DNA of 51,314 nucleotides from Candidatus Peribacteria bacterium RIFCSPHIGHO2_01_FULL_55_13 (GCA_001788925.1 MFXS01000041.1:1-51314), one strand, 5' to 3'. Positions 21,100-43,420 are shown, numbered from the stretch's first letter. The notes: generated by a model not told the origin, from the sequence alone. Numbers and translations: made by a program.

Positions 21100-22320
21100 T
21101 TAATACGAATAATACGTCCCCCGTATCACCGGTGCATCAGCCCCCACCCAATCGAAAGTCGTCGATCCGTCCGTCCATTGGATAGCTCCAGCGGACGTGG
21201 TCGTACCGGGTTCATTGAGGCTGACCTGGAGTGATGCGCGGTTGCCCGTGTTGCTAATGGCGATATCCGCAAGCAACGTAAGCCTGCGCGGACCGCTACT
21301 GAGTGATCCAAAAGAAGCGGAAAGCGGACACGTGATGGTCGAAGAGGAAATAGTGCAGCTGCTTCGGTCGCTGCTGCCATCGGCGATGATTTCGGCGTTG
21401 CTGAGGCTGACATTTCCCGTCTGGGAAAGCGTGAAACGAAGCTCCGTGAGCCGCAGGTCGGCGCTGCCGTCACCCCGGACCCCCATGAAACGGAACTTGC
21501 CGATTTCGCGGTCGCTACCGGAAAGCAGAGGTTCGTTCGTGGGACCGCCATTCATGATGGAAGTGATCACCGAACGCGCGATTTGGTGCGTGCTGAAGGT
21601 GCCCGTCAGGGATTGCGTGTAGCTCCGGTTGCTCCACACGCCGCTTCCTTCCAGCGACACGGAAGCAGCTGTGAGGAGTTCGGCGCTCACCCCGCCGGCA
21701 TCGCGGTTCTTGAGGACAGCCCGGATATAGAAGGAGTAATCCTCGCGATGTGGAACGACGATGTTTTTCGTCTTGAGATTCAGCACGTACGTCTTTCCGC
21801 CGCTGACAGACGAATCCAAGCGTGCGGAGCCCAAAAGCCATGCGTCGTGGTCGTAGATCAGAAGCTGGTCGACGGAGTGCACAGCGGTGTCCAGCGTCAC
21901 CGTGATGGTGGTGGCGCGCAGCGGCTCCGTATTGCTGAAGGCCTTCACGGACCCGAGCACAGGAGACGTTCCCCCCAACAGCACGATGCGTCCACCGAGC
22001 GACACATCCGGATACGGATCGCGGACGCCGGATACCGAGGAAACCGAAGAGCGGGAAGAAGACGCCGAGGAACGTGAGATGGAAGACAATCTGCGGTTGC
22101 GCCTGGCCACCGCGGCCCGAAGAGCACGGCGCGAAGGGTGCGATGCGACCGAGGAACGCGCTTTGGAGATCACCGGACTACCGGTGCGCACGAGTGTCGG
22201 GGTGATTCCCCTCATCTGTTCGATACTCTGAAGCGTCCACGCATGGGCGGGAACAGCGCTCAGTAAGCTGGCCGTCACGGTGGTGGCGGAAAGAAGTCGG
22301 CGAAAAGAAAGGTGGTCCAT
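21100..22320 (-). CDS. Secreted/surface protein with Ser-rich linker and two beta-rich repeats
   Basis: Signal peptide ending AHA, Ser/Arg linker, and two similar beta-rich segments (LLGG..PVLG.. / LLSG..REIG..). Confidence 0.75.
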   Translation of the reverse strand: MDHLSFRRLLSATTVTASLLSAVPAHAWTLQSIEQMRGITPTLVRTGSPVISKARSSVASHPSRRALRAAVARRNRRLSSISRSSASSSRSSVSSVSGVRDPYPDVSLGGRIVLLGGTSPVLGSVKAFSNTEPLRATTITVTLDTAVHSVDQLLIYDHDAWLLGSARLDSSVSGGKTYVLNLKTKNIVVPHREDYSFYIRAVLKNRDAGGVSAELLTAASVSLEGSGVWSNRSYTQSLTGTFSTHQIARSVITSIMNGGPTNEPLLSGSDREIGKFRFMGVRGDGSADLRLTELRFTLSQTGNVSLSNAEIIADGSSDRSSCTISSSTITCPLSASFGSLSSGPRRLTLLADIAISNTGNRASLQVSLNEPGTTTSAGAIQWTDGSTTFDWVGADAPVIRGTYYSY

Positions 22321-22354
22321 AGGTAAAGAGAGAATAGCGCAAAGACTGCGAAGG

Positions 22355-22384
22355 AGAAGACGAAGGTATAGAAGGTTTCTTACG
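22355..22384 (-). promoter_or_regulatory. ECF-sigma-type promoter cGTAAGA-N15-CGTCtt
   Basis: Same motif and spacing as 40807, 41681 and 43391. Confidence 0.7.
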
Positions 22385-22386
22385 TA

Positions 22387-22698
22387 TTATTCCCACTCTG
22401 ATGGTGTGGAAGCCTTCTTCAAATCACGTACAAGTTTTTGCACATGATCCTGCATTTTACCCAAACGTCGCCCTGCTTGATCTGCTTGCTTACGAAGCAA
22501 CAAAATAAGCTCTTCATCAGACGAAGTATCCATATCTTCCATGCGCATGCCACACCAACGCACACACATTTTCCTGATAGCTGCTTCAGCACCGCGAAGA
22601 TTTTTTAAGGATGCAACGGTGTTGCCGAATTGTGCCAGCCCCTCACCAGGAGCGGCATTTTGGGAATGTCCTGTCTGATGGAGTTCGGAGAGACTCAT
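22387..22698 (-). CDS. Hypothetical protein (helical)
   Basis: 103-aa ORF downstream of an attenuator-like leader. Confidence 0.6.
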   Translation of the reverse strand: MSLSELHQTGHSQNAAPGEGLAQFGNTVASLKNLRGAEAAIRKMCVRWCGMRMEDMDTSSDEELILLLRKQADQAGRRLGKMQDHVQKLVRDLKKASTPSEWE

Positions 22699-22719
22699 AG
22701 GAAGAAAAGAAAAGCAGAT

Positions 22720-22876
22720 AAAACCCCTCCTCTACTCGGGAAGGCGTCTCTGCCCTTTTGATCATTTGATCTTCAGGCAGCCAGGCACCTTCCCGCGCGC
22801 GGCGGGGTAAAGGGCACCGGCAGTGTTGCCTGAAGAAACATTACGGTTACTGTATCAGGAAATAGGGGGAATGCAA
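22720..22876 (-). promoter_or_regulatory. Promoter, Pro-rich uORF (22841-22773) and terminator/antiterminator
   Basis: TTGCAT-16-TACAGT; uORF MFLQATLPVPFTPPRAGRCLAA; GGGAAGGTG can pair with CGCCTTCCC of the terminator arm. Confidence 0.45.
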
Positions 22877-22879
22877 GAG

Positions 22880-23893
22880 CTACAGCTTTCCGGCTGCATC
22901 GAGCAATATGCGGCGCGTGTCCTCCCAACCGAGGCAAGCATCCGTGATGGAAACATGAGGATCCATGCCTAGTGTAATAGGCTGCTTCCCTGCCTTAATA
23001 TTGGATTCAACCATGAAACCACGCACGTTATTGTATTCCTCACGTTCGCGGATCATGCCATGCATGACGGCAATCAATACATCTTCCTGAAGAAGAGGAT
23101 CTTTGCCTTCTCCATTCATGGAATTATCGTGGCTTGCATCCACGATAATCGCAGGATTGATAACCTTAGCTGCTTTCAATAGCTTGTCGGCCTTGGCGAT
23201 GGAACGCGGACCATAATTGCTACCATCTCTACCTCCTCGGAGTATCAAATGCGCATAGGGGTTTCCTGTGGTCTCCACCTGATTTCTATGCAGTGCAAAT
23301 GTATGCGGAGCCTGAACAGCAAGGACTCCGTTCACACCGATTTCAATATCTCCACTTGTGGGGTTTTTTACTCCCACCGGGACATCGAGACCGGATGCGA
23401 CATAACGATGCTCCATGTCTTCGGCGCTCCGCGCACCAAGAGCGAGATAGCTCAGAGCATCATCAAAATATGGACCGTTGTGTGTGAAAAGCATTTCATC
23501 TGCAATCGGCAATTTAAGCGCCGTATCGCACATCATCCGCCGACATTCATGAATCCCACGGATAATATCCGGCGGGGCCAGTGGATCAGGTTGGTTCAGT
23601 GGTCCCGGCCAGCCCACCGTCGTCCTCGGTTTTTGAATATATGTTCGGAGAACAAGCAAAATCCTCTCTTCGATGTCTTCCTGCAGACGAGCGAGTCGGT
23701 CTGCATATTCCCGTACGGTATCGAAGGGGTACGCGGAACAGAGACCGGCGATCACCATAAGACGCTTGTCGCGCCCGGCAAGAATCTCCTCAATCATATG
23801 CCTGCGCTCCGGCACGTGATGCTCCGGAGTGATGGGATACTTCTGCACGATTTCTTCGGCAGGCGGTAGTGGTTGAACGATGCGGTTGGCCAT
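22880..23893 (-). CDS. DAHP synthase (3-deoxy-7-phosphoheptulonate synthase), AroF/G/H type
   Basis: KPRTTVGW, LGARS, ASGLDVPVGVKN, HLILRGG, VDASHDNS, MVESN, SITDACLGW. Confidence 0.93.
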   Translation of the reverse strand: MANRIVQPLPPAEEIVQKYPITPEHHVPERRHMIEEILAGRDKRLMVIAGLCSAYPFDTVREYADRLARLQEDIEERILLVLRTYIQKPRTTVGWPGPLNQPDPLAPPDIIRGIHECRRMMCDTALKLPIADEMLFTHNGPYFDDALSYLALGARSAEDMEHRYVASGLDVPVGVKNPTSGDIEIGVNGVLAVQAPHTFALHRNQVETTGNPYAHLILRGGRDGSNYGPRSIAKADKLLKAAKVINPAIIVDASHDNSMNGEGKDPLLQEDVLIAVMHGMIREREEYNNVRGFMVESNIKAGKQPITLGMDPHVSITDACLGWEDTRRILLDAAGKL

Positions 23894-23916
23894 GGAAATG
23901 AAGTTGGAAACGATAC

Positions 23917-23943
23917 AAAAACACCTTCCGGCTGGGAAGGCGC
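23917..23943 (-). terminator. Attenuator terminator upstream of DAHP synthase
   Basis: GCGCCTTCC-cagcc-GGAAGGTGT plus T-run. Confidence 0.8.
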
Positions 23944-23964
23944 TTGAGTGACTTTCTTCTGTTC

Positions 23965-24039
23965 TCAGTCACGCACGCAAACGCCTTCCGCCGTAAAGCT
24001 AAAGGTGTAAGCGCCGTAGTTGAGAGTCGAGTAGACCAT
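23965..24039 (-). CDS. Tyr/Phe-rich leader peptide MVYSTLNYGAYTFSFTAEGVCVRD
   Basis: 3 Tyr and 2 Phe; contains GGAAGGCG complementary to the terminator 5' arm; promoter TTGACT-16-TAAAAT just upstream. Confidence 0.75.
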   Translation of the reverse strand: MVYSTLNYGAYTFSFTAEGVCVRD

Positions 24040-24090
24040 GAACACCGTGATTTTAATTAAGAACAGAGTAAAGTCAAGGAAACGCCCCCT

Positions 24091-24903
24091 ATGCCAGAAG
24101 TTCGTGAATTCCTTCGGCGCCACGGAATACGACTCAATACCGATCTTGGGCAACATTTTCTAATCGACGAGGAGGTTCTCCGCAGTATCGTTGAAGCGGC
24201 TGGGATAGAGCCTACAGATCATGTGGTCGAAATCGGACCAGGCATCGGCGTGCTCACGGCAGAACTCCTCAAGCGCACAGCCAAAGTGACGGCAATCGAG
24301 TTGGACGAGAGAATGATCCCGCTGCTCAAAATATTTACTTCTGAGCAGCTGAGCAGCCAAGAAGCTGAGAAGCTCGTCGTGGTCCAGGGCAACGCCCTCC
24401 ACATTCCCATGCCTTCGGAGAAGTACCGCGTCGTCGCCAATATTCCCTACCACATCACCTCCCCTCTCCTGCGCCATGTATTTCTGGAGTCCCCCGTGCA
24501 TCCGGATTCGCTGACCCTTTTGATCCAACGCGAAGTCGCGGAGAAGATCTGTGATGCAGAAGACCGCGGACTCCTTACGATCCTCGTTGGCCTCTTCGGG
24601 AAACCTCGCATCATCCGAAAAGTTCCGCCGGGCTGCTTCCTTCCCCCGCCGGCCGTGGACTCCGCAGTGCTCCAGATCGACTGCTTCGATGCGCCTCTGG
24701 CAGGCCGGGAGACCATTGAGGAGGTCTTCCGAATGGTAAAGATCGGCTTCGGCCAAAAGCGGAAGATGCTGCGCAATACCTTCGGCCCGTTCCCCGAGCT
24801 CATGGAACGCCTTTCTTCGCTAGGGATAGACGAAAAACGGAGACCGCAGACTTTATCAATTGAAGAGTGGATCGCTTTGGCAAAGCTAAAAAGGAATGCT
24901 TAG
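24091..24903 (+). CDS. rsmA: 16S rRNA dimethyladenosine transferase
   Basis: LGQHFL, EIGPGIG, VANIPYHIT, QREVAE, PPPAVDS, QKRKML. Confidence 0.96.
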   Translation: MPEVREFLRRHGIRLNTDLGQHFLIDEEVLRSIVEAAGIEPTDHVVEIGPGIGVLTAELLKRTAKVTAIELDERMIPLLKIFTSEQLSSQEAEKLVVVQGNALHIPMPSEKYRVVANIPYHITSPLLRHVFLESPVHPDSLTLLIQREVAEKICDAEDRGLLTILVGLFGKPRIIRKVPPGCFLPPPAVDSAVLQIDCFDAPLAGRETIEEVFRMVKIGFGQKRKMLRNTFGPFPELMERLSSLGIDEKRRPQTLSIEEWIALAKLKRNA

Positions 24904-24909
24904 AAAGCA

Positions 24910-25034
24910 CTGTGTCGCTCTTCGATACCCTTCGACAAGCTCAGGACAGGCGCGCCGCCATGTCATGGTGAGTAGCCCGAGCGATAGCGAGGGCGTATCG
25001 AACCAGACTGGCGGCGCTACTCAGAGTGACACAG
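24910..25034. repeat. Composite nested palindromic repeat element
   Basis: Inverted ends CTGTGTCGCTCT/AGAGTGACACAG, with internal CCCTTCGACAAGCTCAGGAC and GTCATGGTGAG...TCGAACC units; a related unit lies at 14573-14595. Confidence 0.65.
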
Positions 25035-25053
25035 CACTGCATTTCGGATTTTC

Positions 25054-26469
25054 ATGCGTCCTTCCTTTATCGCCTCCCTCTTCATCGGCACATTTCTTTT
25101 TGCGACGTTCCTTCTGCAATGGTGGCAACTGGCCTCCTATCCTCTGTGGATCTGGACAGTCCTCGTCCTCTTCGGACTCGTCGGTCTCCTTGGTCTCAGT
25201 ATTCGCCGCCATTGCACCGGCCCCTGTCTGGTAATCGCACTCAGCATCGCTCTCTCCTTATGGACCGTCTCCCATGCCCACAAGAAATTCCAAGCACAAA
25301 CTCTTCCTCAATACACCGCGCAGAACATCACCCTCCTCGGTACTGTCACGGGAGGTCCATCCGGCAAACCTCCCGCTGCACTCTACCCCGTGCGCGTCGA
25401 AGCGATGGATAGCTCGGGAACATTGATCCCTGTAAGCGGTTCTGTGCTCATAGAAGACTACGGCGGCTGGCCGGAGTACCACATTGGAGATCGCATCCGC
25501 GCGGAAGGAATGCTGGAACTTCCCAAGAACTCCGAAGATTTCGATTACGGCCAGTATCTCCGGCTGCAGGGAATTTCGACGATTCTGAAACGGGCAAAAC
25601 TATCCCCTGTATCTGTAGGGGCATTGCATGCAATGCCCCTACCCCTCCGCCTACGCAGGATGCTGCAGTCGTCCAAAATCTGGTTCGAATCCCGCATCAA
25701 CCTCCTCTTTCCCGAGCCCGAAGCGGCACTCATCACCGGACTTCTTACTGGGGAACGGCGGGGGTTCAACAAACGCGTGCTCGATGATTTTGCGACAACC
25801 GGCCTCACACATCTTGTGGCGATCTCCGGGACGAACGTGACGATCATCATCGGCATTCTCGGCGGACTCCTCTTCTGGCTGCCGCTCAAGTGGCGATTTT
25901 TTCCGCAAGTGATCGCCATCGCGCTCTTCACGCTCTTTGTGGGTGCTTCGGCATCGGTTGTCCGCGCTTCGGTGATGGGAATCCTGGGGCTGACCGCTCT
26001 CGAACTCGGTCGCATCCGCGATACACGTCTTGCGATCCTGTGGACGGCCTTCTTCATGACGCTCTGGAAGCCGGAGCAGCTCTGGTGGGACGCGGGATTT
26101 CAATTATCGTTCGCCGCCGTGATCGGCGTGACGGAGATTGGCCCGCGATTTCAGAAAGCATTCTCCAAAATTCCCGAAACGCTCGGCCTCCGAGACAGTC
26201 TCGCGATGACACTTGCCGCGCAGATCACGACGCTTCCGGTAAGTATCCTCACGTTCGGCCGTGTTTCGCTGATTGCACCGCTCAGCAATATCCTTGCAGC
26301 GCCGCTCGTTCCAATTGCGATGCTCTTTGGATTTCTGGGGACGATCGCAAGCATTGTGTGGTTCCCGCTCGGGCAGCTCGTAGGATTTGCGGGGTATGGA
26401 GCGGCGGAGTGGATTACGGGGACCGCGAGTATGTTGGCAAAGGTGCCCTTTGCGGCAGTGGGATGGTGA
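25054..26469 (+). CDS. comEC: ComEC/Rec2 competence protein (OB and Competence domains, no beta-lactamase-like domain)
   Basis: GLTHLVAISG.N, SASVVRASVM, DAGFQLSF. Confidence 0.92.
   Translation: MRPSFIASLFIGTFLFATFLLQWWQLASYPLWIWTVLVLFGLVGLLGLSIRRHCTGPCLVIALSIALSLWTVSHAHKKFQAQTLPQYTAQNITLLGTVTGGPSGKPPAALYPVRVEAMDSSGTLIPVSGSVLIEDYGGWPEYHIGDRIRAEGMLELPKNSEDFDYGQYLRLQGISTILKRAKLSPVSVGALHAMPLPLRLRRMLQSSKIWFESRINLLFPEPEAALITGLLTGERRGFNKRVLDDFATTGLTHLVAISGTNVTIIIGILGGLLFWLPLKWRFFPQVIAIALFTLFVGASASVVRASVMGILGLTALELGRIRDTRLAILWTAFFMTLWKPEQLWWDAGFQLSFAAVIGVTEIGPRFQKAFSKIPETLGLRDSLAMTLAAQITTLPVSILTFGRVSLIAPLSNILAAPLVPIAMLFGFLGTIASIVWFPLGQLVGFAGYGAAEWITGTASMLAKVPFAAVGW
25615..25642. repeat. Perfect 28-bp GTAG-type REP palindrome inside comEC
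   Basis: GTAGGGGCATTGCA-TGCAATGCCCCTAC. Confidence 0.8.
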
Positions 26470-27003
26470 TCACCATTTGTAGACCCGCACCGCCCTCTCA
26501 CTCCCCATCCACGGAACTTTCACTTCGTGTTCCGGTTGCTTCCCGGGAATTTTAAACACGTACGCGACAACGCGTGTACCGGGACGAAGTTCCTGATCGA
26601 ATTTTTCTTTGAGCTTCTCCATCAGACTGGGAATCAGATAGAGGAACACGCAGTCCGCGTCCTGAAGATCGCAGTGGAGGATGTTCTGAAACCGCAGCGT
26701 CACCTTCTGCCGGGATTGGAGGATATTCATCTTCCCCAATGCCCACACGGTGGGGATCAATTCACAGCCGATCGCTTCGATGCCCGGCTCTTTCCGTTTC
26801 GCGGCGATGAGGAGACGCGCGTCCCCCGCCCCAAGATCGTAGACGCGGTCCCCGGGCTTCAGATATGCGAGCTCCACCATCTCTTTGACGACTGCATGAG
26901 GAGTCGGCACGTAGACCACCGGCACCCAGAGGTGCGCGATGAAGGTGATCGCAATAAGGAGCGTCATCACGACAAGGCCGGCGAGCGCGAGATCGGCGAG
27001 CAC
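26470..27003 (-). CDS. Membrane-anchored class I SAM-dependent methyltransferase
   Basis: N-terminal TM, YVPT, DLGAGDARL, ADCVFLYL, ELRPGTRVV. Confidence 0.88.
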   Translation of the reverse strand: MLADLALAGLVVMTLLIAITFIAHLWVPVVYVPTPHAVVKEMVELAYLKPGDRVYDLGAGDARLLIAAKRKEPGIEAIGCELIPTVWALGKMNILQSRQKVTLRFQNILHCDLQDADCVFLYLIPSLMEKLKEKFDQELRPGTRVVAYVFKIPGKQPEHEVKVPWMGSERAVRVYKW

Positions 27004-27077
27004 GGGAAAAGCCTACCCGTCTTGCGTTGGGGAGGCATCCCGATCCGGAAATGATGTTCTGGATATTCTGGTGGCAA

Positions 27078-27326
27078 TTACGCCGCCATGGACTCGTCTT
27101 CAACCGGAGCCTCGGCCACATCATCATTGCCGCTGACGGCGCTGACGTTTTCAGCCTTGGGTCCCTTGTCGCCTTTGACAATGTCGAACTGCACTTTCTG
27201 GCCGATCTCGAACATCTCATACTGGCCGTTGCAGGCGCTGTGATGGAAGAACACATCGTCGGATCCCTCGACGGTGATGAATCCGAAACCCTTTTCGGTC
27301 TTGGTCTTGATAATACCTGTCGTCAT
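27078..27326 (-). CDS. Cold-shock domain protein with acidic tail
   Basis: RNP1 KGFGFI, RNP2 VFFH, KGPKAENV. Confidence 0.93.
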   Translation of the reverse strand: MTTGIIKTKTEKGFGFITVEGSDDVFFHHSACNGQYEMFEIGQKVQFDIVKGDKGPKAENVSAVSGNDDVAEAPVEDESMAA

Positions 27327-27454
27327 GTAAGTAGGAGTAGAAAAAATAAAAGCGTCTAAAAGACAGGTGATTGTAGCACGACGCAATGTGGGAGAGATAC
27401 CCCGGAGCAAGAAGTTTCCAGAGATAATTTTTGGCACAATGGTACAATTTTTCC

Positions 27455-28030
27455 ATGAAGACCACTCGCCTCGAGGCATTCAGCGATGCCGTCATCGCCA
27501 TCCTCATCACCATCATGGTGCTTGAACTCAAGATTCCCCAGGGTGAGGATATCGCAGCATTGCTGCCCACCTTGCCCCTATTTCTCGGGTACGTATTGAG
27601 CTTTGTATTCCTCGCAATCTATTGGAACAATCATCACCACCTGCTGCAGGTTGCCGATCATGTCGACGGACGCATTCTCTGGGCAAACATGCACCTCCTC
27701 TTCTGGCTTTCCTTGGTTCCCGTCACAACCGCGTGGATGGCCGAGACGCACTTCGCCATGATCCCGACCGCATTCTATGGCGTGGTCCTCCTGCTCGCCG
27801 CAATCAGCTATTCGTTTCTGGTCATGGCTATCAACGCTCACAGCGACGCCAATCATCTTCTGCGAAAAGCTATCGGACGTGACTTCAAAGGAAAGGTTTC
27901 CATCGCGATCTATGTCCTTGCCGTTGTCCTCACGGGTGTGCACCAGTGGATCTCCCTCGCTCTGTACGCGCTCGTCGCCCTGATGTGGCTCATTCCGGAC
28001 CGCAGAATCGAGAGAGTTCTTGGGCACTGA
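27455..28030 (+). CDS. TMEM175-family potassium channel
   Basis: RLEAFSDAVIAILITIMVL, YWNNHH. Confidence 0.92.
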   Translation: MKTTRLEAFSDAVIAILITIMVLELKIPQGEDIAALLPTLPLFLGYVLSFVFLAIYWNNHHHLLQVADHVDGRILWANMHLLFWLSLVPVTTAWMAETHFAMIPTAFYGVVLLLAAISYSFLVMAINAHSDANHLLRKAIGRDFKGKVSIAIYVLAVVLTGVHQWISLALYALVALMWLIPDRRIERVLGH

Positions 28031-28120
28031 TGACAAAATCTCCTCGCTGCGGCAAATCCGAAAAAAAGCTGTGACGCCATTGCCGGATTGCTATACTACG
28101 TACGCGTTCATTTTGCTCCC

Positions 28121-28195
28121 GGCCCCATCGTCTAACGGTTAGGACAGCGGGTTTTCAATCCGTTAACCAGAGTTCGACTCTCTGTGGGGCTGCCA
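28121..28195 (+). tRNA. tRNA-Glu (anticodon TTC)
   Basis: Cloverleaf: acceptor GGCCCCA/TGGGGCT, anticodon TTC at 28154-28156, GTTCGAC T-loop, encoded CCA. Confidence 0.95.
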
Positions 28196-28204
28196 AATTC
28201 TCTC

Positions 28205-34174: not shown

Positions 34175-34678
34175 TTACCGTGTGATGATCGGGGCATCGT
34201 CCAACAGCAATCGCAGACTCTGAAGCCCCCGGAAAATACGGACGGAGACTGTGTTCGCATTTTCTCCGGTCTTGCGTGCGATTTCCGCCGGATGCAGTCC
34301 AAGGAGAAAACGGTCATGCAGCACCTGCCGGTACGGACGCGGCATTGTGCGAAGTTTCCGCATCGGCCTCTCGGCGTCCAGCCGGCTGTACGTCTGATGC
34401 CAGAGGTCGACTGAGGGGGCGAATCCCTCCTCCAGAAGCAGGTCGAGCGAGGCTTCCCTCTTCCGGCGCGCATGGTCGATGATGAGATTGTGCGCGATGC
34501 GGTAGAGGAAAGCGCGTTCATGGAGAATCGTGTCTTTCCGCTGCAGGCAGAGCCAGAAACGGAGAAAGGTATCCTGCGTGAGGTCTTTGGCCGTCTCACG
34601 ATCTCTGCATCGCTTGGCGCAGTAGCGGAAGATGGCGTCCTGATAGAGGTCGTGAAAGGCGATGAAATCGTGCGTCAT
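34175..34678 (-). CDS. ECF RNA polymerase sigma factor
   Basis: DLTQDTFLR.W, AFLYRIAHNLIID, EIA...G...NTVSVRIFRG. Confidence 0.9.
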   Translation of the reverse strand: MTHDFIAFHDLYQDAIFRYCAKRCRDRETAKDLTQDTFLRFWLCLQRKDTILHERAFLYRIAHNLIIDHARRKREASLDLLLEEGFAPSVDLWHQTYSRLDAERPMRKLRTMPRPYRQVLHDRFLLGLHPAEIARKTGENANTVSVRIFRGLQSLRLLLDDAPIITR

Positions 34679-35236: not shown

Positions 35237-35556
35237 AAAACTGGGGAGTAGGGATGGATAAAAAGGGAAATAGAGAGCGCTTAGAAGAGATCTGCCTTTT
35301 GGACATCAGCCGGGATGGCACCGGAACCAAATGTTTCTGGAAACGTTTGCTGATGAATCGCGGGGAACCATGGTTTCTGTGCGTCGGAGAACCGCCGGGT
35401 AGGGAGAAGCGAAGAACGATAGGAACGACAGATGTGCATAGACTGCGGGGGGAAGGAACCGCAACAATGGGCGTATGGTTTTTTTACGCAAGAGCATGCC
35501 GAATACACCAAGTCGCCTATCGGCACACCTTCTGTACGCGTTTGGACGCCGGACGT

Positions 35557-36441
35557 TTACCTATCAGAATGCACCTCTTTCCCCACCCATGTTGTCAGGA
35601 AATCTGCGGGCATGAAACCGATGATGTTCTGCGCCTGCCGATCAGGATCAAGAGATCGGTTGTTGTACTTCCACTCAAGCTCCTTGAGAAAGAAACCGGT
35701 GTCGCGCTTCCACATGCCTGTACGGACGTGTGCCCGCTCCTGAATCCATCTCCACAGTTTCTCGGCATTGTCCTTCAGCCCGTCCGCCTTCGCAGAGCGG
35801 TGCAATTTGCCGCAACAGATGAATCCTGCATAGTCCTCAGCGCCTCCCAGGACCATGTGTATCGAACCAAGCGGATCAAAGTGGAGTGCGGCATCATCAT
35901 CACCCAAGGGATCGATGGTGACGGTATCGCTGGCGCCGATCCGCACACCAAACACCGGCGGCTGTTCTTTGTCGGCACCGCGTCTTTTACTCTTGCACCA
36001 TCTGCACCGGGAACGTTCATGGACTACCTGGATATCCCCCGAATGTTTCGAGAGCAATCGCCACTGTCCGGGAGACAAATGTGTTTCCGTCAGGAGTCTG
36101 CGGAAGTGATCGTAGTACAGTGCGACCAGCCGGTAGCGGTGATAGGTAATCTGTGCCGCCTGGCGTTCCGAAAAATCGAGGCAGAAGCAGAGCAGGATCT
36201 CCGCACATTGCTGCAATTTGTTCCCTTCGCTCACTTTATGGATACGAAACTTCTTCCCGCACATGGTGCATTTCCTCCGCCCGTCTCCCAATGTGTTCAA
36301 TCTGGTCCGTATGCCACACTCCGGGCATAGTAAGTGCCGCGAGGCGTCGCTTTGCGTGGGACGCACCTTTTCCTTGAGGTGCGGTAGAAGAGTATCTGCA
36401 TTAATAATCATCAGAAGAGCAAAGGGAGACACTTTGACCAC
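35557..36441 (-). mobile_element. IS1595-family transposase-derived protein, apparently catalytically degenerate
   Basis: N-terminal CPEC...CTMC zinc ribbon, HTH, KRRG...PVFG, and C-terminal FLKELEWKYNNR typical of IS1595 transposases; no terminal inverted repeats seen. Confidence 0.7.
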
Positions 36442-36522
36442 TCAATGTAGTCCATTTCAGGAAAAAATGAGAGGAAATAACTCTTGATCGACAAAAATGC
36501 ATAGGGTGTTGCTACATGTATC

Positions 36523-37362
36523 TCAGCGGACAAACGCCGGCTGCATCGTCCTGGGGCTGTATCCCATCATGTACTTTGCATACACCCGCAAACGATCGGT
36601 GAGGAGACGCCGGTCGGACGTAAAGACGGCAGCGTGCTCCGCGGTACTGCAGGAAACAGGACCGAAGCTTCTCAACTTTTTCATGAGCGAAGCCCCCTCC
36701 GCATAGCGGCTGCGGGAATCGTACCCGCCCGCCGCCAGCGCGGCATCGCGCCGAAACCAGGAATTCGCTTCCGCGAGCCCGAAGACAAACGTCTCTCCCT
36801 GTACCGAGCGGGAAAGATTCTGCAGCTGGATGCACAGCTGATACCAGGACGATTCCCCAAGGGGATGAACCCATCCGAATCCTCCCGCAAGCCCGGGATG
36901 CAACCGCCACTCGGCGGCGATGGTATTCAGCCAGTCGGGATGATGAAGCGTGTCACCGTCGGTCGTAACGACGATAGAACCGCGTGCGGCCAGCAAACCT
37001 TCCTGCCGGGCGCCGCCTACACCGCCCTGGCGCCGGTGGATCACCCGAAAGCCCGCGCTCTCCGCTATGCGTTGGGTGAGATTACCCATCGGCTCTCCGT
37101 TGGAGACAATGATGAACTCGGCGCTCTGGTTTGTCTGCTCCGCGAGGGATCGCAGCGTCGCCAGCAGATACCGCGTCTCCTTGTGAACCGGAACGATGAC
37201 GGAGAACATGGGCGGGCCACGCAGGACGTGACGACGCTGCATCCGTCCGCGGACCTGTGCGCATTTTGCGGCGCACTCCGCAGAGGAAAATGTTCCAACG
37301 CCGAACTCTTCCAGGTTACGGACGCGCTCGGGGGGGCCGAAGGAGGACAAAAGAAAAGACAT
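36523..37362 (-). CDS. Glycosyltransferase family 2
   Basis: FSVIVPVHKE, EFIIVSNG, ARQEG, TTDGD. Confidence 0.88.
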   Translation of the reverse strand: MSFLLSSFGPPERVRNLEEFGVGTFSSAECAAKCAQVRGRMQRRHVLRGPPMFSVIVPVHKETRYLLATLRSLAEQTNQSAEFIIVSNGEPMGNLTQRIAESAGFRVIHRRQGGVGGARQEGLLAARGSIVVTTDGDTLHHPDWLNTIAAEWRLHPGLAGGFGWVHPLGESSWYQLCIQLQNLSRSVQGETFVFGLAEANSWFRRDAALAAGGYDSRSRYAEGASLMKKLRSFGPVSCSTAEHAAVFTSDRRLLTDRLRVYAKYMMGYSPRTMQPAFVR

Positions 37363-37370
37363 GGAAAAAA

Positions 37371-38342
37371 TCAGGAAGAAGGCACCATGGCGGTGCTGTG
37401 GAGGACGTGGGCGGTAAGATTCTGTTTCGTGGCAACAGAGGGAAGGAGAGAATAATCACCATCCCACGCTTGCCGCACAATGCGGAAGAGGTTATTCATA
37501 TCCGTCAGAAACGTGAGGTGGCCGCCCGGCATCAGAAACGTTCTGCACCGGGGAATATAGCGGGCGATCCCCCGTGCCACGGACCACGGAATGACGTCAT
37601 CGCCCCTGCCATGGAACAACAGGACGGGGACGTGTTCCGGAAACTCGGGAAGATCGAATCCCCAATGGAAATAGAGATATACCTCGTCGATGAGACCCCG
37701 GACGCCGCTCGGTTGCATGAAGACTGCGGCATAATCCTCACGGAACATTGTCTCCAGTCTCCGCTGCATCTCTGCGCTTACCGACGGAGCGGAAGAGGTC
37801 ATGGTCAGCAGACGATAGGCGATGTGCGGAAAGTTCCGGCAAAACACAAATAGCGCGCGCAGCCCCCAGCCCGCAATGCGGTCATGATCATGGCAACCCG
37901 AGAGAAACATCCGGCGGATCATTTTCATGTGCCGCAGGTTGTGGGTCACATTCAGCGGCGCCATGCATCCCGCCACTGCCGTAAAACGAACGCGGTCCGG
38001 CAGGGCAAACGCGCACGAAAGCGCAAAACATCCGCCCCCAGAAACACCCACTGCGGCAAATACGTCGATGTGCAGCGCATCCATCAGTTCCGCGCTGTCG
38101 GCGGCTGTCGCAGTCATCAGGGGAAATTTATGCAGAGAGGAGTGGCCGATGCCCGGTCGGTTGGGTGCTATGATCCGAAGCCCGTTGCGCCGCGCGCAGT
38201 CATCTACCAATGCGCCCTGATGATGTGAACCGAGAAAACCGTGGCAATAGAGCACAGGCTTGCCGCGAGGGTCGCCGTACACGGCGTACTCGAGGAGGCG
38301 ACCGTCGGAAAGCCGAAGAAGGCACGGGTTTGCTGTGCGCAT
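37371..38342 (-). CDS. Alpha/beta hydrolase
   Basis: DGRLLEY, HGF.GS, RPGIGHS, nucleophile GVSGG, HGRGD, GGH. Confidence 0.9.
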   Translation of the reverse strand: MRTANPCLLRLSDGRLLEYAVYGDPRGKPVLYCHGFLGSHHQGALVDDCARRNGLRIIAPNRPGIGHSSLHKFPLMTATAADSAELMDALHIDVFAAVGVSGGGCFALSCAFALPDRVRFTAVAGCMAPLNVTHNLRHMKMIRRMFLSGCHDHDRIAGWGLRALFVFCRNFPHIAYRLLTMTSSAPSVSAEMQRRLETMFREDYAAVFMQPSGVRGLIDEVYLYFHWGFDLPEFPEHVPVLLFHGRGDDVIPWSVARGIARYIPRCRTFLMPGGHLTFLTDMNNLFRIVRQAWDGDYSLLPSVATKQNLTAHVLHSTAMVPSS

Positions 38343-38484
38343 ATGCTGCGGAAACCAGTGTTGATGACGAGGGATTGATGAAAAAATGACACGTTTTGCA
38401 CGCGAATTTGCTCATGGAATTCGTTGCACGCGAAATATCCTTCACTCGGTGAAGGATGAAAGAACGGCGATGCGTTGATACGGA

Positions 38485-38961
38485 TCAGCGATACAACGGC
38501 CGCACTTCAAACAGTAGCCACAGCCCGATCACGGTCCCGATGACCGTACCAATGGCACTGGAGCCGTAGCCGATGGCGATCTCGATGATAGCGGCGGCTG
38601 TGGTGATGATCGTTCCGTAGAAAATATAGTTCCAGCCCTTTTTCTGACGCTTCTTGAGTGGGCTGAACGCAAGAATCTGGAGAACTGCAGCGATGAGTCC
38701 CGCGAGGACGGAAATGACCCAAGCCACTTCAGAAATACCGCCCGTCATAAACGAGAGCGAGGCAACGGAGAGCAGGACACCTGCGGAGAGAAGGGCGATG
38801 AGGCCAAGGATTCCGAAGATGAGCGAAAGCCACGGCGCGATCGTTGCCAGGAACTCCCGAAAACTTGCGGGGAGGTGCGGCGCCTTGGCGAAGATCGGCG
38901 CAAGCCAGCCCTCGAGGGCAGCCATCTTTTTCTCGGTCGTTTTCTGGAAGTCGTTTGCCAT
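38485..38961 (-). CDS. Four-TM membrane protein, function unknown
   Basis: Four hydrophobic segments; APHLP...APW and KKGW motifs. Confidence 0.8.
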   Translation of the reverse strand: MANDFQKTTEKKMAALEGWLAPIFAKAPHLPASFREFLATIAPWLSLIFGILGLIALLSAGVLLSVASLSFMTGGISEVAWVISVLAGLIAAVLQILAFSPLKKRQKKGWNYIFYGTIITTAAAIIEIAIGYGSSAIGTVIGTVIGLWLLFEVRPLYR

Positions 38962-38988
38962 GGAAAAGAATGGGGAAGGAAAGAAAAA

Positions 38989-40326
38989 TTATTTCTTTTT
39001 ATGCGTCGCCTCGTACGTTTTGTCCATCGCCGTCCAGAATACGCGGTTATCGATGCAGAGAGGGTTTCCGCTTCCGGCATCCTTGCAATCGCCGTTTTCG
39101 AGGAGGTTTCCGTACTTCACGAAGCCCGTGTTCGGGTTGTCCTGGTACGGGTTCTCTTTGATGCCTTGTACCGTCGCCTTGTGAACCTGTTCATTGGACC
39201 AGTCGGGATGCGCCTGTGCCATGGTATCGCGGTGGCGATTGTAGGCCGCTGCCATCCCGACAAAGACTTCCTTCTGGGCGCCGTCTTTGAATGAGGTGAG
39301 TGCATGATCGACAATTCCTACGACGACAAATGCGTCACCCGCGACCGTCTTGGCGATGTCTTCGACTCCTTCCTTCAGTTTGCTGGTCGCCTCATCCTTC
39401 GCTTTGGAAATGAGCGTGTCTTTCACACGGTCGAGGCGGCCCTTCTGGAGGAAATCATTGTCTCCCTGCTGTTCCAGCATCTTCTCATACACGGTCAGGG
39501 CATCCTCGGCTTTTGATCTCTCGGTGGGAGCATCTTCGCCGATCAACTTATCTTTCAGGCGGTCGAAGAATCCTTTGCTGAGGATATCTTTCGCCGACAT
39601 ATTTTCGATTGCATCCTTGGGATCGTAACTGTCGATGAAGATCTTCTTGAGTTCCTGCAGCTTCTCGAACTTCGTCGTGACATCCTCCAGTTTCTCGCCA
39701 GATTTATCCAGGAACTCTTTATATTTCTGGAGCCCTGCCAGACGATCGGGGTCTTTTTCTTGGTCGATATCCTTTTCCAGGAGTTCCAAATACTTCTTCC
39801 AGCCCTCGTCGCCGATGCTCTTCAGATCTTCTTTTACCTTATCGTTGGCAAGCGGGTCATCGGTGCCGCCGGCTGCAGGCTTCTCTGCTGTGTCCTCTTC
39901 CTTTTTCACGTCGCAGCTCCCGGCGCCGGCATTCCACACATAACCATCACCGCATCCCTTTCCGTTCTTCGCCCACGCCGCACGGCACTGCACCTCGTTC
40001 TCGGTACTCTTGCAGTCATCCACGGAGTGATTTTTAAACGCAGCCTCGAGGCATTCTTCCTTGGAATAGCCCATAAAACTCCCCTCCACTCCTTCGCACG
40101 CAGAAGGATCGCCCGTATTACCCGCGATCAGCATGTGACATTTTTCCTGCGGAGGAGCGTATTCGATTTTGGCACAATTCTCAGGGTCGCTTTCCTGCAC
40201 CGCAACCGCCTGGTAACAGTGGTCGCTGTCCGGACCGGTCTCACAGAACACCTCCATCACATCACCGAGACAACCGCTGAGAAGCAGTGCTGCAGGAGCC
40301 AGAAGAAGGAGAGATGATCTCTTCAT
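38989..40326 (-). CDS. Cys-rich lipoprotein with helical C-terminal region
   Basis: MKRSSLLLLAPAALLLSGC lipobox; repeated C-x-rich units; ATGA overlap with the upstream gene fixes the start at 40326. Confidence 0.8.
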   Translation of the reverse strand: MKRSSLLLLAPAALLLSGCLGDVMEVFCETGPDSDHCYQAVAVQESDPENCAKIEYAPPQEKCHMLIAGNTGDPSACEGVEGSFMGYSKEECLEAAFKNHSVDDCKSTENEVQCRAAWAKNGKGCGDGYVWNAGAGSCDVKKEEDTAEKPAAGGTDDPLANDKVKEDLKSIGDEGWKKYLELLEKDIDQEKDPDRLAGLQKYKEFLDKSGEKLEDVTTKFEKLQELKKIFIDSYDPKDAIENMSAKDILSKGFFDRLKDKLIGEDAPTERSKAEDALTVYEKMLEQQGDNDFLQKGRLDRVKDTLISKAKDEATSKLKEGVEDIAKTVAGDAFVVVGIVDHALTSFKDGAQKEVFVGMAAAYNRHRDTMAQAHPDWSNEQVHKATVQGIKENPYQDNPNTGFVKYGNLLENGDCKDAGSGNPLCIDNRVFWTAMDKTYEATHKKK

Positions 40327-40763
40327 TTCTTCTTGGGGAGGAGAAGCGGAATCGAAAGAAGAATCGTCAGAAGGATCGCCACGAGGGAGCCCCACAGCAT
40401 CGGACGCGTCAGGAATTCGACGACGGCGCGGGCGATTGGAGTAAATGGTGGTTCTTCACTGAGAATCCACGCGAACACAAACCAGGGAACAACCCCGATC
40501 AGAACGACGATGGGATGGAACACTTCCACCCGGCGGATTCGAAAGAGCCTTCGCAGGAGATTGAGGATACCGATACCGATGATGGAAGGAATCGCCATCA
40601 CCGGGCCTACCGCCCACGCGCCGATGTTCATCCATTTTACGATTTCACTGTTGCCGACGCTCTCCCCCGATGGCGCAAGCATCGCAAACGCCGCCGCAGA
40701 AACCCCCGCCATCACCAGGCACATCAGGAACGGGAACCATGCCGAACCGAGGAACCGTCGCAT
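40323..40763 (-). CDS. Four-TM membrane protein
   Basis: Hydrophobic segments; translationally coupled to the lipoprotein. Confidence 0.78.
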   Translation of the reverse strand: MRRFLGSAWFPFLMCLVMAGVSAAAFAMLAPSGESVGNSEIVKWMNIGAWAVGPVMAIPSIIGIGILNLLRRLFRIRRVEVFHPIVVLIGVVPWFVFAWILSEEPPFTPIARAVVEFLTRPMLWGSLVAILLTILLSIPLLLPKKK

Positions 40764-40806
40764 TGGAAAATATTGTCGCCCTCCTGCAAGCCGGACGCAA
40801 GGTCAT

Positions 40807-40836
40807 TGTAAGAGAGGCCCCCCTCCTCCGTCTTCT
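40807..40836 (+). promoter_or_regulatory. ECF-sigma-type promoter tGTAAGA-N15-CGTCtt
   Basis: GTAAGA at 40808-40813 and CGTC at 40829-40832, in the same register as three other copies. Confidence 0.65.
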
Positions 40837-40839
40837 TGA

Positions 40840-41085
40840 GTACAAGCGACCCGCCTGCAATGCTCGGGTTGCCATCGAAGCAAATGGAGCCTTAAAAGCT
40901 CCCTAGAGGAAATTTCAATCCTCACACGATGGCATCCAGATCGACACTGCGGACGGGTTTGTTTTGAAGCGCTCCAGACCGGCAAAGCCGGACTTCGCGC
41001 TCTTATTTTATGGGTGCTCTCCTTAAGAAAAAGGAAAGTTGGAAAATCACCTATACAAAAAGCAGGGATTACTCCCTGCTTTCTG
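40840..41085 (+). ncRNA. Putative structured small RNA of unknown class
   Basis: Nested helices with G-U pairs favouring the + strand, no sizeable ORF, promoter directly upstream and terminator hairpin downstream. Confidence 0.55.
41057..41084. terminator. Probably bidirectional intrinsic terminator
   Basis: AAAAAGCAGGGA-ttac-TCCCTGCTTT. Confidence 0.8.
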
Positions 41086-41104
41086 GCTTCGAAAGTATCA
41101 GTTT

Positions 41105-41620
41105 TTATTTCTTCATTGCTTCGATGGCGGCATTGACCTTGGCCTGAAGCTTCGCCTTGGCATCGACGATACACGTATCGTGCTCAGTGCCTTTTTTGTC
41201 TTTACAGACAGCAACGGCAGCTTCAGCCTCGGTGTTCAAAGCGGCAGAGAGCTGCATCCTGAGTCCGGAGAGGAAAACACGGACACGGGCGATGGCGGAT
41301 TTACCAGCATCGCGGGCATCGTGCACGCGGGTGCGGATGGACTTGAGTGTGTCGTGCATCGTGCGACGGGCATCCTTGGTTTCCGTCTTGGCCTCAAGGT
41401 AAGCGCGGACACCGCCTTCACATTCGGCTTTTTCCTCACCGGAGAAACGGGCGCAGCGGGCTGTGACTTTGGCGTCGATATCCGCGCTGGCCGCGGAGGT
41501 GGTAACGGACGTGCTGGAATCGAGATCAACGTTGACTCCGAGCGCGAGGGATGAAGCCGGAATGGCGAGAGCGATTGCCGAAGCCGCGAGGGAAGCGGTC
41601 ATGCGATAGAAACGATCCAT
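41105..41620 (-). CDS. Secreted helical Ala/Lys-rich protein with two Cys pairs
   Basis: Signal peptide ending SLA; CARFSGEEKAEC and CKDKKGTEHDTC. Confidence 0.78.
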   Translation of the reverse strand: MDRFYRMTASLAASAIALAIPASSLALGVNVDLDSSTSVTTSAASADIDAKVTARCARFSGEEKAECEGGVRAYLEAKTETKDARRTMHDTLKSIRTRVHDARDAGKSAIARVRVFLSGLRMQLSAALNTEAEAAVAVCKDKKGTEHDTCIVDAKAKLQAKVNAAIEAMKK

Positions 41621-41680
41621 AAAAATAGGGGGAAAGAAATAGGGCAACTGGGAAAACAAAAGAACAACTGCATGCATAGA

Positions 41681-41710
41681 AGTAGACGAAGCAGCCTATC
41701 CCCTCTTACG
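41681..41710 (-). promoter_or_regulatory. ECF-sigma-type promoter cGTAAGAGGG...TTCGTCta
   Basis: Near-duplicate of the motif upstream of the sigma gene. Confidence 0.72.
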
Positions 41711-41723
41711 CGGAAAAAATGGC

Positions 41724-42869
41724 CTACGGCAGCAATCCGCGTTCGATGATCTCTTTCTGTTCTTCGACTTTCTCGCGAAGATTTTTCTCTTGTTCAGAAG
41801 AGGTGGATCCTTCAGCCACCGAAGATGCTTCTGCTGCCGCTGCACTCTCCGTACTCGCATTGCTCTGCGTGGAAGCTTCGGCGGAAGAATCTGTACTGGA
41901 GGACATATCAGCACGAGAACTCCTCGATTTCTTTTCTTGTGCAGCGGAGCGACCGTCTCTGTCCTCGTCACTCGCCTCTTCCGAAACATCCTGCGATTGC
42001 ACCGGGGTGCTGCGGGAACGGGCCTTTGCCGAACCGGAAACCTTGATGCCGATTCGGATTTCTCCCTGCACATCCGCGTTCTTGGTGGAAGAATCGGACG
42101 CGGCACGCTTGAGGATGAAGTTCGCCTCGCTGCGCGCCGCATTTCCGCGCTCACGGACAAACTGCCGCAGATGATCCTCCTCAGATTTCTTGGCCCTGTC
42201 CTCCGGCCCTCCAAACGCGGCCGGAGCGACTGCAGGCGGGAAAGACTCTTCGTACTTTTCAAAGGTGGTCGCCAGGACTTCCTGCACGGCGACGTGCGTT
42301 TCCACGGACGGAGGCGGAAGGAGCGTATCCTGAAGCGTCACCACCTGCAGGGAAATCCTGCGTTCGAGCTCCGCACGGTTCTGCGTAGTAAGCTTCCCTC
42401 TTCCGGCAAGCTGTTGCGCCTCGCGCAGGCGTCGTTCTACCTTGCGGATCTGCCAGACGGCCTGCTTCTGCGGCGTGCGGATCATCTTTTCACGAAACGG
42501 TTCCAGAACATCCACTTTAAGAGCATAGAGAGGATCTCCCGGGATCGCGGATTCGGAGGCATAGGCGAGCGCACCGCTCCCAAGCACAATGATAAGGGCG
42601 CTAAGGGCCAGTGCCGGCATCCGCAGCAGCGGAACACTGATGACCGTCCACCACGCCGAAGTCGGCTCGCGGTCCGCCTGCAGGCGCATGGAGGCAATAA
42701 GGGAGCCACGGCCCATGGCTTTCTCTTCGGCGCTGAGGGCGATGGTCGCTGCATCGTTCAACGCTATCCGTGCGAGGAGCGCACTGCGTCCTTCCTCTTT
42801 TTCATGGTCCGTGAGGCGCAATTGCTTGGCCTCGGAGAGGAGCCGTTGGAAGGCGTCGTTGCGGGTCAT
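41724..42869 (-). CDS. DUF5667-like single-TM protein, putative anti-sigma factor
   Basis: ATGA overlap with the ECF sigma gene; TM followed by AIPGDPLYALK and ERRLREA; Ser/Glu-rich tail. Confidence 0.75.
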   Translation of the reverse strand: MTRNDAFQRLLSEAKQLRLTDHEKEEGRSALLARIALNDAATIALSAEEKAMGRGSLIASMRLQADREPTSAWWTVISVPLLRMPALALSALIIVLGSGALAYASESAIPGDPLYALKVDVLEPFREKMIRTPQKQAVWQIRKVERRLREAQQLAGRGKLTTQNRAELERRISLQVVTLQDTLLPPPSVETHVAVQEVLATTFEKYEESFPPAVAPAAFGGPEDRAKKSEEDHLRQFVRERGNAARSEANFILKRAASDSSTKNADVQGEIRIGIKVSGSAKARSRSTPVQSQDVSEEASDEDRDGRSAAQEKKSRSSRADMSSSTDSSAEASTQSNASTESAAAAEASSVAEGSTSSEQEKNLREKVEEQKEIIERGLLP

Positions 42870-43378
42870 TGGGAAATAATCAGGGAACGGAGTTTTTCCA
42901 TGCCGCGGTGAATGCGGACAGAAACAACATTGGGGGAAACCTTGAGAAGGTCGGCGATTTCGCGGGGGAGGAGGCCGTCGACATACCTGAGCACGATGAC
43001 CGTGCGCAGCGGTTCTTCCATTGCATGGAGGACGGTAAGAACCTTTTCGGAATCGATGCGAACGGCGGCGCTATCGTCTTCCTCCGCCGGGGGATCGAAG
43101 CCCTTCTGCTCGCGGAGGTCCTCAAGCGATTCCTCTTTCCGGAGCTTCTTGCGGCGCACGAGGTCGACGATAAGGTTGTTGGCGACGCGATAGAGGAAGG
43201 CGCGGAGATTATCGACTTTCTTTCCCTTGGAGATGTACTCCCATGCACGCAGGAATGTCTCCTGCATCAGCTCGCGCCCCTGCTCCCGGTCGCCGAGGCG
43301 CAGGGCGATGTGCCGGAAGATGGCATCGGCATAATCGTCGTACGCCTGTAGAAATGCTTGTTCAATATTCCGATCCAT
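42866..43378 (-). CDS. ECF RNA polymerase sigma factor
   Basis: AYDDYADAIFR, LMQETFLRAW, RAFLYRVANNLIVD, EIADLL.VS.NVVSVRIHRG. Confidence 0.92.
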   Translation of the reverse strand: MDRNIEQAFLQAYDDYADAIFRHIALRLGDREQGRELMQETFLRAWEYISKGKKVDNLRAFLYRVANNLIVDLVRRKKLRKEESLEDLREQKGFDPPAEEDDSAAVRIDSEKVLTVLHAMEEPLRTVIVLRYVDGLLPREIADLLKVSPNVVSVRIHRGMEKLRSLIISQ

Positions 43379-43390
43379 GCCGAACAGTGT

Positions 43391-43420
43391 AGATGACGAA
43401 GGAGCATATGCCCTCTTACG
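43391..43420 (-). promoter_or_regulatory. Putative autoregulatory ECF promoter cGTAAGAGGG...TTCGTCat
   Basis: Directly upstream of the sigma ATG at 43378. Confidence 0.72.

Follow-up and report, generated by a model that had tools for sequence, protein, structure and literature searches.

In the DNA of Candidatus Peribacteria bacterium RIFCSPHIGHO2_01_FULL_55_13, a stretch of 51,314 nucleotides (nt) (GCA_001788925.1, MFXS01000041.1:1-51314; hereafter the window) carries four copies of a bipartite motif, GTAAGA-N15-CGTC, one of them directly before the gene for an extracytoplasmic function (ECF) sigma factor. Our results, all of which are computational, suggest that this motif, in the fuller form yGTAAGA-N15-CGTCt, is quite probably the promoter read by RNA polymerase with the ECF sigma factor of 42866-43378. 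The sigma factor would then control its own gene, an overlapping gene for a DUF5667-like membrane protein that is proposed as its anti-sigma factor, and a set of surface proteins. What we observe is a motif with a specific spacing and an intergenic, oriented placement, that is tied to the sigma locus across genera, together with the contents of the genes that it precedes. An earlier note on this DNA had proposed the motif as the promoter consensus of the sigma/DUF5667-like pair, a proposal that our computations support.

The four copies in the window are each exactly GTAAGA-N15-CGTC and lie where the earlier note had placed them: before the sigma gene, before the gene for a secreted protein that follows the DUF5667-like gene, before a distant gene for a secreted beta-rich protein and before a putative noncoding RNA (Table 1). 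The leading c that the note included in the motif stands at three of these sites; at 40807 the base is t. By 100 dinucleotide-preserving shuffles, 0.11 copies would be expected in the window; the shuffle maximum was 1, and none of the 100 gave 4. The genome holds 14 exact sites. When the spacer was varied from N5 to N30, N15 gave these 14 and the other 25 spacings gave 0-5 (mean, 1.08; Poisson p ~1e-11), and the reversed order CGTC-N15-GTAAGA and the replacement of CGTC by GCTC at N15 each found a single match in the genome. GTAAGA alone is rare, with 223 copies on both strands of the genome. Across the 14 sites, the base 5' of GTAAGA is a pyrimidine in 13 (T 8, C 5, G 1) and the base 3' of CGTC is mostly T (T 10, A 3, C 1), and the spacers between the boxes are unrelated from site to site. 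The recognisable regulon is essentially these 14 exact sites, of which about 1 is expected by chance.

The sites are also placed as promoters would be. Thirteen of the 14 lie outside gene bodies, against 7 of 27 other-spacing controls and 915 of 5000 random positions, and nine have a same-strand gene starting no more than 200 nt downstream, as do 2 of the 27 other-spacing controls and 346 of the 5000 random positions. From CGTC to the start codon the distance is 7-100 nt. Together with the peak at N15, these counts bear out the enrichment upstream of genes genome-wide that the earlier note had named as a check.

The sigma factor consists of Pfam domains Sigma70_r2 (residues 13-78; E 1.3e-10) and Sigma70_r4_2 (residues 111-163; E 9.8e-11), and the Pfam search gave no match to region 3 or region 1. 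With regions 2 and 4 only and a length within the range of about 170-200 amino acids (aa), it has the make-up of an ECF (group 4) sigma factor. It scores 82.9 bits with the NCBIfam ECF superfamily model TIGR02937 (cut-off, 42.9), and it reaches the cut-off of no NCBIfam ECF subfamily, scoring 94.5 bits for BldN (cut-off, 206.45), 81.1 for SigM (147.95) and 76.9 for SigW (209). Six sigma-70-family genes are present in the genome, two long and four ECF-sized. One of the latter, a paralog at 34175-34678 of the window, has no anti-sigma-like gene after it.

The motif is tied to the locus of this sigma factor in other genomes. (The genome of the window is designated G000, with relatives numbered from G001 upward and loci given L numbers.) Sigma orthologs at 15 loci, including the one in the window, are 42-100% identical, and in six of them, two belonging to other genera, the motif is found 7-16 nt before the start of the sigma gene. 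The upstream copy is exact in this genome, G002, G021 and G007 and has one change in the -35 element in G004 (GTAAGT, L009) and G001 (GAAAGA, L010). Among the matches listed, four further genera (G048, G059, G060 and G061) have the motif, by coordinates, directly upstream of the sigma ortholog, and in G046, G052 and G057 it lies, by coordinates alone, 47-210 nt beyond the sigma gene. Of the 22 other genera with listed site positions, 14 have a motif on the same strand that is at or adjoining the sigma locus. G002, G004, G001, G003, G021 and G007 have a second same-strand motif after the anti-sigma gene. The earlier note's claim that the sigma factor is autoregulated is thereby supported, and its expectation that the motif be kept at orthologous sigma genes holds for these loci, with the remainder considered below.

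The number of motif sites follows the presence of the sigma gene. Among 58 genus representatives of the family (ortholog cut-off, E <= 1e-37; two borderline genomes left out), the 34 with a sigma ortholog have a mean of 5.8 sites (median, 5; none in 2 genomes), and the 24 in which no ortholog was found have a mean of 1.6 (median, 1; none in 11). The Mann-Whitney p value for this difference is 1.7e-6, which overstates the significance because related genomes are not independent. A control with the reversed pattern gave 5.2 sites in genomes with the ortholog versus 4.8 in those without (p = 0.26). Beyond the family, each of 16 genomes of the class has 0-1 sites.

Two side observations concern sigma loci. 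In G017, the best sigma ortholog (L016, G017:C1:251180-251653) has an in-frame TAG; the genome nevertheless carries 13 motif sites, and another copy of the sigma gene (46% identical) is found on C3. In the window, the sigma gene has a divergent neighbour (43477-43911, plus strand) encoding a 144-aa membrane protein with no Pfam family. Before it, a sigma-70-like TTGCAT-N17-TATAAT can be read by eye within 43439-43479; its ATG is 9 nt past the -10 element, so its predicted mRNA would be nearly leaderless.

The gene that follows the sigma gene encodes a protein with the arrangement of a membrane anti-sigma factor. Its ATG and the sigma stop codon overlap, with 4 nt common to the two genes, and at 13 of the 15 ortholog loci the next open reading frame (ORF) overlaps the sigma gene end by 1-11 nt; from these overlaps, the DUF5667-like gene is predicted to be translationally coupled to the sigma gene. 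In an alignment of 15 relatives, the cytoplasmic N-terminus has two 'A+xLxLTxxEK' repeats (three in some genera), followed by one transmembrane segment at about residues 80-102, an invariant AESAxPGDxLYxxK...ERRLxEA stretch outside the membrane and a variable low-complexity tail. Pfam DUF5667 (PF18915) matches at 17.8 bits in hmmscan and at 21.6 bits in a genome search; as both lie under the gathering threshold of 27, we call the protein DUF5667-like. It matches no anti-sigma family in Pfam or NCBIfam at E <= 0.01, residues 1-78 contain no Cys and so lack the HxxxCxxC zinc (ZAS) signature of class I anti-sigma factors, and its profile found no relative in the PDB (best E, 0.098). The gene overlap and the topology are thus those of a membrane anti-sigma factor, and binding to the sigma factor is predicted by a structural model.

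That model was one of the checks proposed in the earlier note, the sigma factor being predicted together with the N-terminus of the 41724-42869 protein. The complex of sigma factor and residues 1-78 scored 0.75 (0.76, 0.75 and 0.75 in separate runs) against 0.00 for the best of three controls. The predicted local distance difference test (pLDDT) value of the partner was 66 or more, and 89% or more of the contacts were shared between runs. The modelled interface brings partner residues 3-38, which include the first repeat, onto sigma residues 6-50 and 109-168, that is, onto regions 2 and 4. The model supports binding of the sigma factor by the N-terminus of the membrane protein. The earlier note had taken the motif as support for the anti-sigma role. 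The motif itself is silent on this; the role is suggested by the gene overlap, topology, conservation and complex model.

The location of the motif within the operon varies. In four other genera, an exact copy is inside the anti-sigma ORF (L018 in G008, L011 in G011, L015 in G015 and L014 in G019), 96-132 nt past the anti-sigma ATG and between the first and second repeats, and an in-frame ATG follows 5-11 nt past CGTC. Induction from such a site would give a shortened anti-sigma factor from a near-leaderless transcript. Distant homologs of the DUF5667-like protein (P0006-P0008) have precomputed PF18915 matches. The only other DUF5667 protein of this genome, on contig C4, is over the Pfam cut-off and, counted from its first ATG, is 636 aa long within an open frame of 647 codons. 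It forms a second ECF/DUF5667 pair (G000:C4:96607-99143), in which the DUF5667 gene, taken from its first ATG, shares 4 nt with the end of the ECF frame, and its N-terminus has a repeated motif different from that of the 41724-42869 protein. The literature searched made no mention of DUF5667 or PF18915. It may be, and we suggest it tentatively, at somewhat less than an even chance, that membrane proteins of the DUF5667 type make up a hitherto undescribed class of anti-sigma factors that is widespread among ultra-small bacteria and grips ECF sigma factors through a short repeated 'LxLTxxEK' helix rather than a classical domain; in this Peribacteria family, the promoter would be placed before the sigma gene or inside the anti-sigma gene according to genus, and in this genus a dedicated structured small RNA would be added.

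The window is contig C41 of an assembly of 1,166,479 bp in 43 contigs (54.6% G+C; marker-gene completeness, 97.7%). Homologs of its proteins are found, by NCBI names, in Candidatus Peribacteria and Peregrinibacteria bacteria, which places the host among the uncultured, small-genome bacteria of the candidate phyla radiation. The stretch is contained in DNA runs labelled as groundwater and soil metagenomes; a search for RNA runs containing positions 40300-43500 found none. Crude calling by codon usage gave a set of 955 genes (84% coding), which was the reference for the placement counts given above. The targets of the sites are given in Table 1.

Table 1. Promoter copies, genes and other elements of the window, and predicted targets elsewhere in the genome
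Feature	Position	Strand	Basis or remarks
Promoter copy GTAAGA-N15-CGTC	43395-43419	minus	Exact match; heads sigma/anti-sigma operon, sigma ATG 16 nt past CGTC
Second promoter copy	41685-41709	minus	Exact match; before 171-aa secreted protein T13
Promoter copy	22359-22383	minus	Exact match; ATG of 406-aa secreted protein 38 nt past CGTC
Promoter copy	40808-40832	plus	Exact match; before predicted small RNA
ECF sigma factor, 170 aa	42866-43378	minus	Pfam and NCBIfam models
DUF5667-like single-pass membrane protein, proposed anti-sigma factor, 381 aa	41724-42869	minus	Gene overlap, alignment, complex model
T13, secreted helical Cys-containing protein, 171 aa	41105-41620	minus	Signal-peptide-like N-terminus; third gene of module
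T14, secreted all-beta surface protein, 406 aa	21100-22320	minus	AlphaFold2 (AF2) model and homologs
Predicted structured small RNA, ~125 nt	40839-40965	plus	Long rod, forked tip, U-run end at 40965
Terminator-like hairpin I3	41056-41085		Between convergent T13 and RNA; inverted repeat, 13-nt arms, 92% complementary, 4-nt loop
SLH + Big_5 + CHRD protein, 643 aa	outside window		Target
SLH + cupredoxin-like protein, 327 aa	outside window		Target
SLH + beta-propeller (PF09826) protein, 883 aa	outside window		Target
Lipoprotein-like protein, 180 aa	outside window		Target
Secreted Gly/Asn-rich protein, 120 aa	outside window, L037 (G000:C10:14902-15171)		Target; after second of two tandem motifs 245 nt apart
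Small ORFs of 53, 68, 71 and 94 aa	outside window		Targets

The targets fit the control of surface proteins claimed in the earlier note: three carry SLH domains, and the C-terminal domain of T14 is fused to SLH domains in its homologs of 550-602 aa in Peribacteraceae. The AF2 model of T14 is all strands, with a pLDDT of ~90 over residues 110-406, and Foldseek returned weak matches to Ig-like domains of cell-wall-anchored adhesins (template-modelling scores of 0.14-0.25) that are too generic for a family claim. T13 has no Pfam or NCBIfam family, and its AF2 model is all helical and of low confidence (pLDDT, 57; predicted template-modelling score, 0.27); T13-like proteins of 156-183 aa with conserved cysteines follow the second motif in six relatives. 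At L037, the first of the tandem motif copies is followed by a 31-aa ORF with a hydrophobic segment, presumably a membrane peptide. Several targets keep their motif in relatives: the orthologs of T3, T7 and T10 do so in G004, those of the SLH/beta-propeller protein in G004 and, at 54.5% amino acid identity, in G015 of another genus, and the 53-aa ORF together with its motif is conserved in G004 (70% identity). The genome has 25 SLH-domain matches in about 15 proteins, three of which have the motif; this is hence not 'the SLH regulon'.

The C/T-rich leaders of the regulon genes were considered as a further signature and rejected, since such leaders occur genome-wide. In the 30 nt before 418 confident ATG starts of the whole genome, the sequence is G-poor (12-20% G) and pyrimidine-rich, with GGAG before 4% of starts, TTCC before 24% and runs of 8 pyrimidines before 20%. 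Shine-Dalgarno pairing seems to be little used in this genome.

The site at 40808 has no ORF after it. The RNA from CGTC to the U-run folds with a minimum free energy of -49.8 kcal/mol (z = -4.17; none of 200 shuffles folds as well). It is below all Rfam gathering scores, the best permissive matches in 40700-41150 having E values of 0.65 and 0.97; across the whole window, only a tRNA passes Rfam. The promoter and RNA are conserved together in G002, G004 and G003 and were not found in G001, G005 and G006. Beyond the genus, BLAST over 60 other genera gave two matches of 19-31 nt (E 0.004-0.009), which we take as chance, and a covariance model (R1) found the RNA in 0 of 60. Compared with G002, G003 and G004, the unit of promoter and RNA (about 40807-40964) is precisely inverted in this genome relative to its flanks, so that it faces the end of T13. 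An invertible switch was considered and rejected: no flipped form was seen, and contigs of four DNA runs (X1, which is possibly the source run, X5, X6 and X9) are collinear over 40477-41347 with no joints, although contigs drop rare variants. As the four runs are collinear, the orientation of the unit here is reproducible. No inverted repeats of more than 15 nt at 80% match flank it.

An independent, sigma-dependent small RNA is the simplest reading of this site, as judged from its sequence and those of its relatives. The site may instead head no free-standing RNA; the folded element could serve an adjacent gene as leader or terminator module, or the promoter copy could be decaying. In favour of this reading, a same-strand gene lies ahead of the element in G004 and G002, starting ~75 nt past the U-run in G004, and the element was seen in only four genomes of one genus. 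We consider it unlikely nonetheless. Promoter, fold and U-run travel as one unit through four genomes in which the neighbours all differ, and in this genome the unit is inverted; a consensus fold of the four sequences has 31 pairs, 6 of which show compensatory changes; all four units keep intact -35 and -10 boxes while their spacers vary; and the RNA is single-copy in this genome.

Several findings weigh against the assignment of the motif, as a promoter, to the sigma factor of 42866-43378 or against parts of that model. ECF promoters usually have AAC in the -35 element, and the motif has AAG; the CGTC of the -10 element and the placement before the sigma factor's own gene are as expected. Variants with one mismatch in the -35 element are not enriched (33 at N15 versus 24-56 for each other spacing), so that the regulon cannot be extended by loosening the motif, and these variants were dropped. 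The single site inside a gene body is in the first 115 nt of an ORF call on the opposite strand, the start of which is uncertain. The 71-aa ORF (L041, G000:C37:7348-7644) is doubtful because it runs over the end of a gene on the plus strand (C37:6884-7513), and the transcript from this site would be antisense to the 3' part of that gene; the site itself appears, by spacer similarity judged by eye, to be conserved in G002. For the complex model, 116 of 157 solved complexes and 2 of 215 mismatched pairs came up to the mark of the tool, counts that hold only roughly here because author-made alignments were used. Related sigma complexes have been solved (SigW and BldN-type), and the score may partly reflect likeness to those. 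The remaining points bear on which sigma factor reads the motif. The motif could be a real promoter read by another sigma factor, either the paralogous ECF sigma factor of 34175-34678 (minus strand) or one missing from the assembly, with the sigma/anti-sigma operon merely one target. With 44% identity and a similar region 4 that shares a VSVRIxRG stretch, the paralog could read the same sites, and 9 of the 15 orthologous sigma loci have no upstream motif at up to two mismatches. G018, which is 99% complete, has 11 promoter-like sites and yet the sole ECF gene found in it is of the other type, with no motif upstream; by eye, its sites precede a relative of the SLH/cupredoxin target, further secreted proteins, a superoxide-dismutase-like gene and a small GlsB/YeaQ-like membrane protein. 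G050 has seven sites, and no sigma ortholog was found.

These points do not, in our judgement, outweigh the link to the sigma factor of 42866-43378, and we regard another reader of the motif as distinctly improbable. In this genome, the motif is missing upstream of the other three ECF genes. The paralog was not found in G018 or G050 at E <= 1e-25. The other ECF type, a weak best match in the ortholog-lacking genomes G003, G005, G006, G012 and G018, does not track the motif; G005 has four motif sites and G006 three, and G010, G020 and G024 have none. In G003, the contig begins exactly at the anti-sigma start codon, so that the apparent absence of the sigma gene there is due to a contig break, and breaks may also account for the missing orthologs in G018 and G050. 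In the 14 other genera described above, motif and sigma locus are physically linked. That the motif is the site of a DNA-binding regulator, or a short dispersed repeat, and not a promoter at all seems very improbable. A bipartite site of fixed spacing could also suit a dimeric regulator; however, the two halves are unlike and not palindromic, the sites are strictly oriented toward a start codon downstream, the spacers are unrelated between sites, CGTC lies 16 nt after an AAG/AAC-type -35 triplet as in the ECF layout, and the sites cluster on the sigma gene itself.

With the motif taken as the promoter of the sigma factor of 42866-43378, the following switch may be envisaged. The sigma gene and the overlapping gene for the membrane protein would be co-transcribed from one copy of the motif, so that the sigma factor would be under positive feedback and, by way of its inhibitor, under negative feedback as well. 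At rest, the short cytoplasmic N-terminus of the inhibitor, through the first 'LxLTxxEK' repeat, would keep the sigma factor at the membrane, gripping it between regions 2 and 4. We infer that an envelope signal, sensed by the extracytoplasmic DUF5667-like part, would free the sigma factor, which could then transcribe ~12 units: T13, the neighbour of the sigma/anti-sigma genes, three SLH-anchored surface proteins, a surface protein of tandem Ig-like type, a lipoprotein, several small proteins that are secreted or lie in the membrane, and a single structured small RNA.

Bacteria of the candidate phyla radiation cannot be grown alone, and almost nothing is therefore known of their gene regulation. 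Here, a regulon can be read from the genome, with one sigma factor, one 25-bp promoter and ~12 transcription units, and it can be tested in a heterologous host. These units mostly build or decorate the cell surface, the part that presumably meets hosts and neighbours. For a domain of unknown function that is common in these phyla, the analysis also proposes a role in sensing, as part of an anti-sigma factor, and it provides a candidate sigma-dependent small RNA.

ECF sigma factors usually autoregulate and are co-encoded with their regulators, as stated in the main text of a published account (PMC7826278), in which Peregrinibacteria, Candidatus, Patescibacteria and 'candidate phyla' do not appear. 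Our literature search on ECF sigma factors in Peregrinibacteria found nothing, and the matches to Peribacteria with sigma factor were unrelated by title or abstract start. The closest parallels are SigW-RsiW, SigX and SigM of Bacillus subtilis and sigmaE-RseA of Escherichia coli, which likewise combine a two-domain sigma factor, a coupled gene for a single-pass membrane protein and an envelope regulon. In these modules, the sigma factor's own promoter is likewise bipartite, with a CGTC -10 element ~16 nt past an AAx triplet. Bacillus ECF promoters have the form xGxAAC-N16-17-CGTx. The spacer here measures 16 when it is counted from the AAG triplet; the layout therefore fits, and the third base of the -35 triplet differs. 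SigW is also the closest solved relative of the sigma factor (profile E, 7e-24). Unlike the partners in these modules, the membrane protein here matches no Pfam or NCBIfam anti-sigma family, and the -35 element is GTAAGA rather than one with AAC as in Bacillus.

In Streptomyces, the ECF sigma factor sigma-BldN drives coat proteins (chaplins and rodlins) and is held by RsbN, a membrane anti-sigma factor without a classical domain. The module described here resembles it in its surface-protein regulon and membrane partner, BldN is the best-scoring specific NCBIfam model, and the BldN-type sigma factor of 6dxo is the third-best solved relative. The 94.5 bits are, however, far under the cut-off of 206, the partner has no sequence similarity to RsbN (no PDB match at E < 0.098), and the targets are SLH, Ig-like and beta-propeller proteins, not chaplins. 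In E. coli, the SigmaE-dependent small RNAs MicA, RybB and MicL form the repressing arm of the response. The RNA predicted here is likewise small and structured, with its own ECF promoter, a U-run end and a place in an envelope regulon, but it has no sequence or Rfam relation to them and is restricted to one genus. As to DUF5667 (PF18915), the AESAxPGDxLYxxK...ERRLxEA stretch after the transmembrane segment aligns to the first 64-73 positions of the model, and the DUF5667 protein on C4 differs in its cytoplasmic N-terminus and is alike in being coupled to an ECF gene. The switch itself is of the textbook type, an autoregulated ECF sigma factor with a membrane anti-sigma factor; what departs from the textbook is the AAG in the -35 element, the type of anti-sigma factor, the RNA target and the host.

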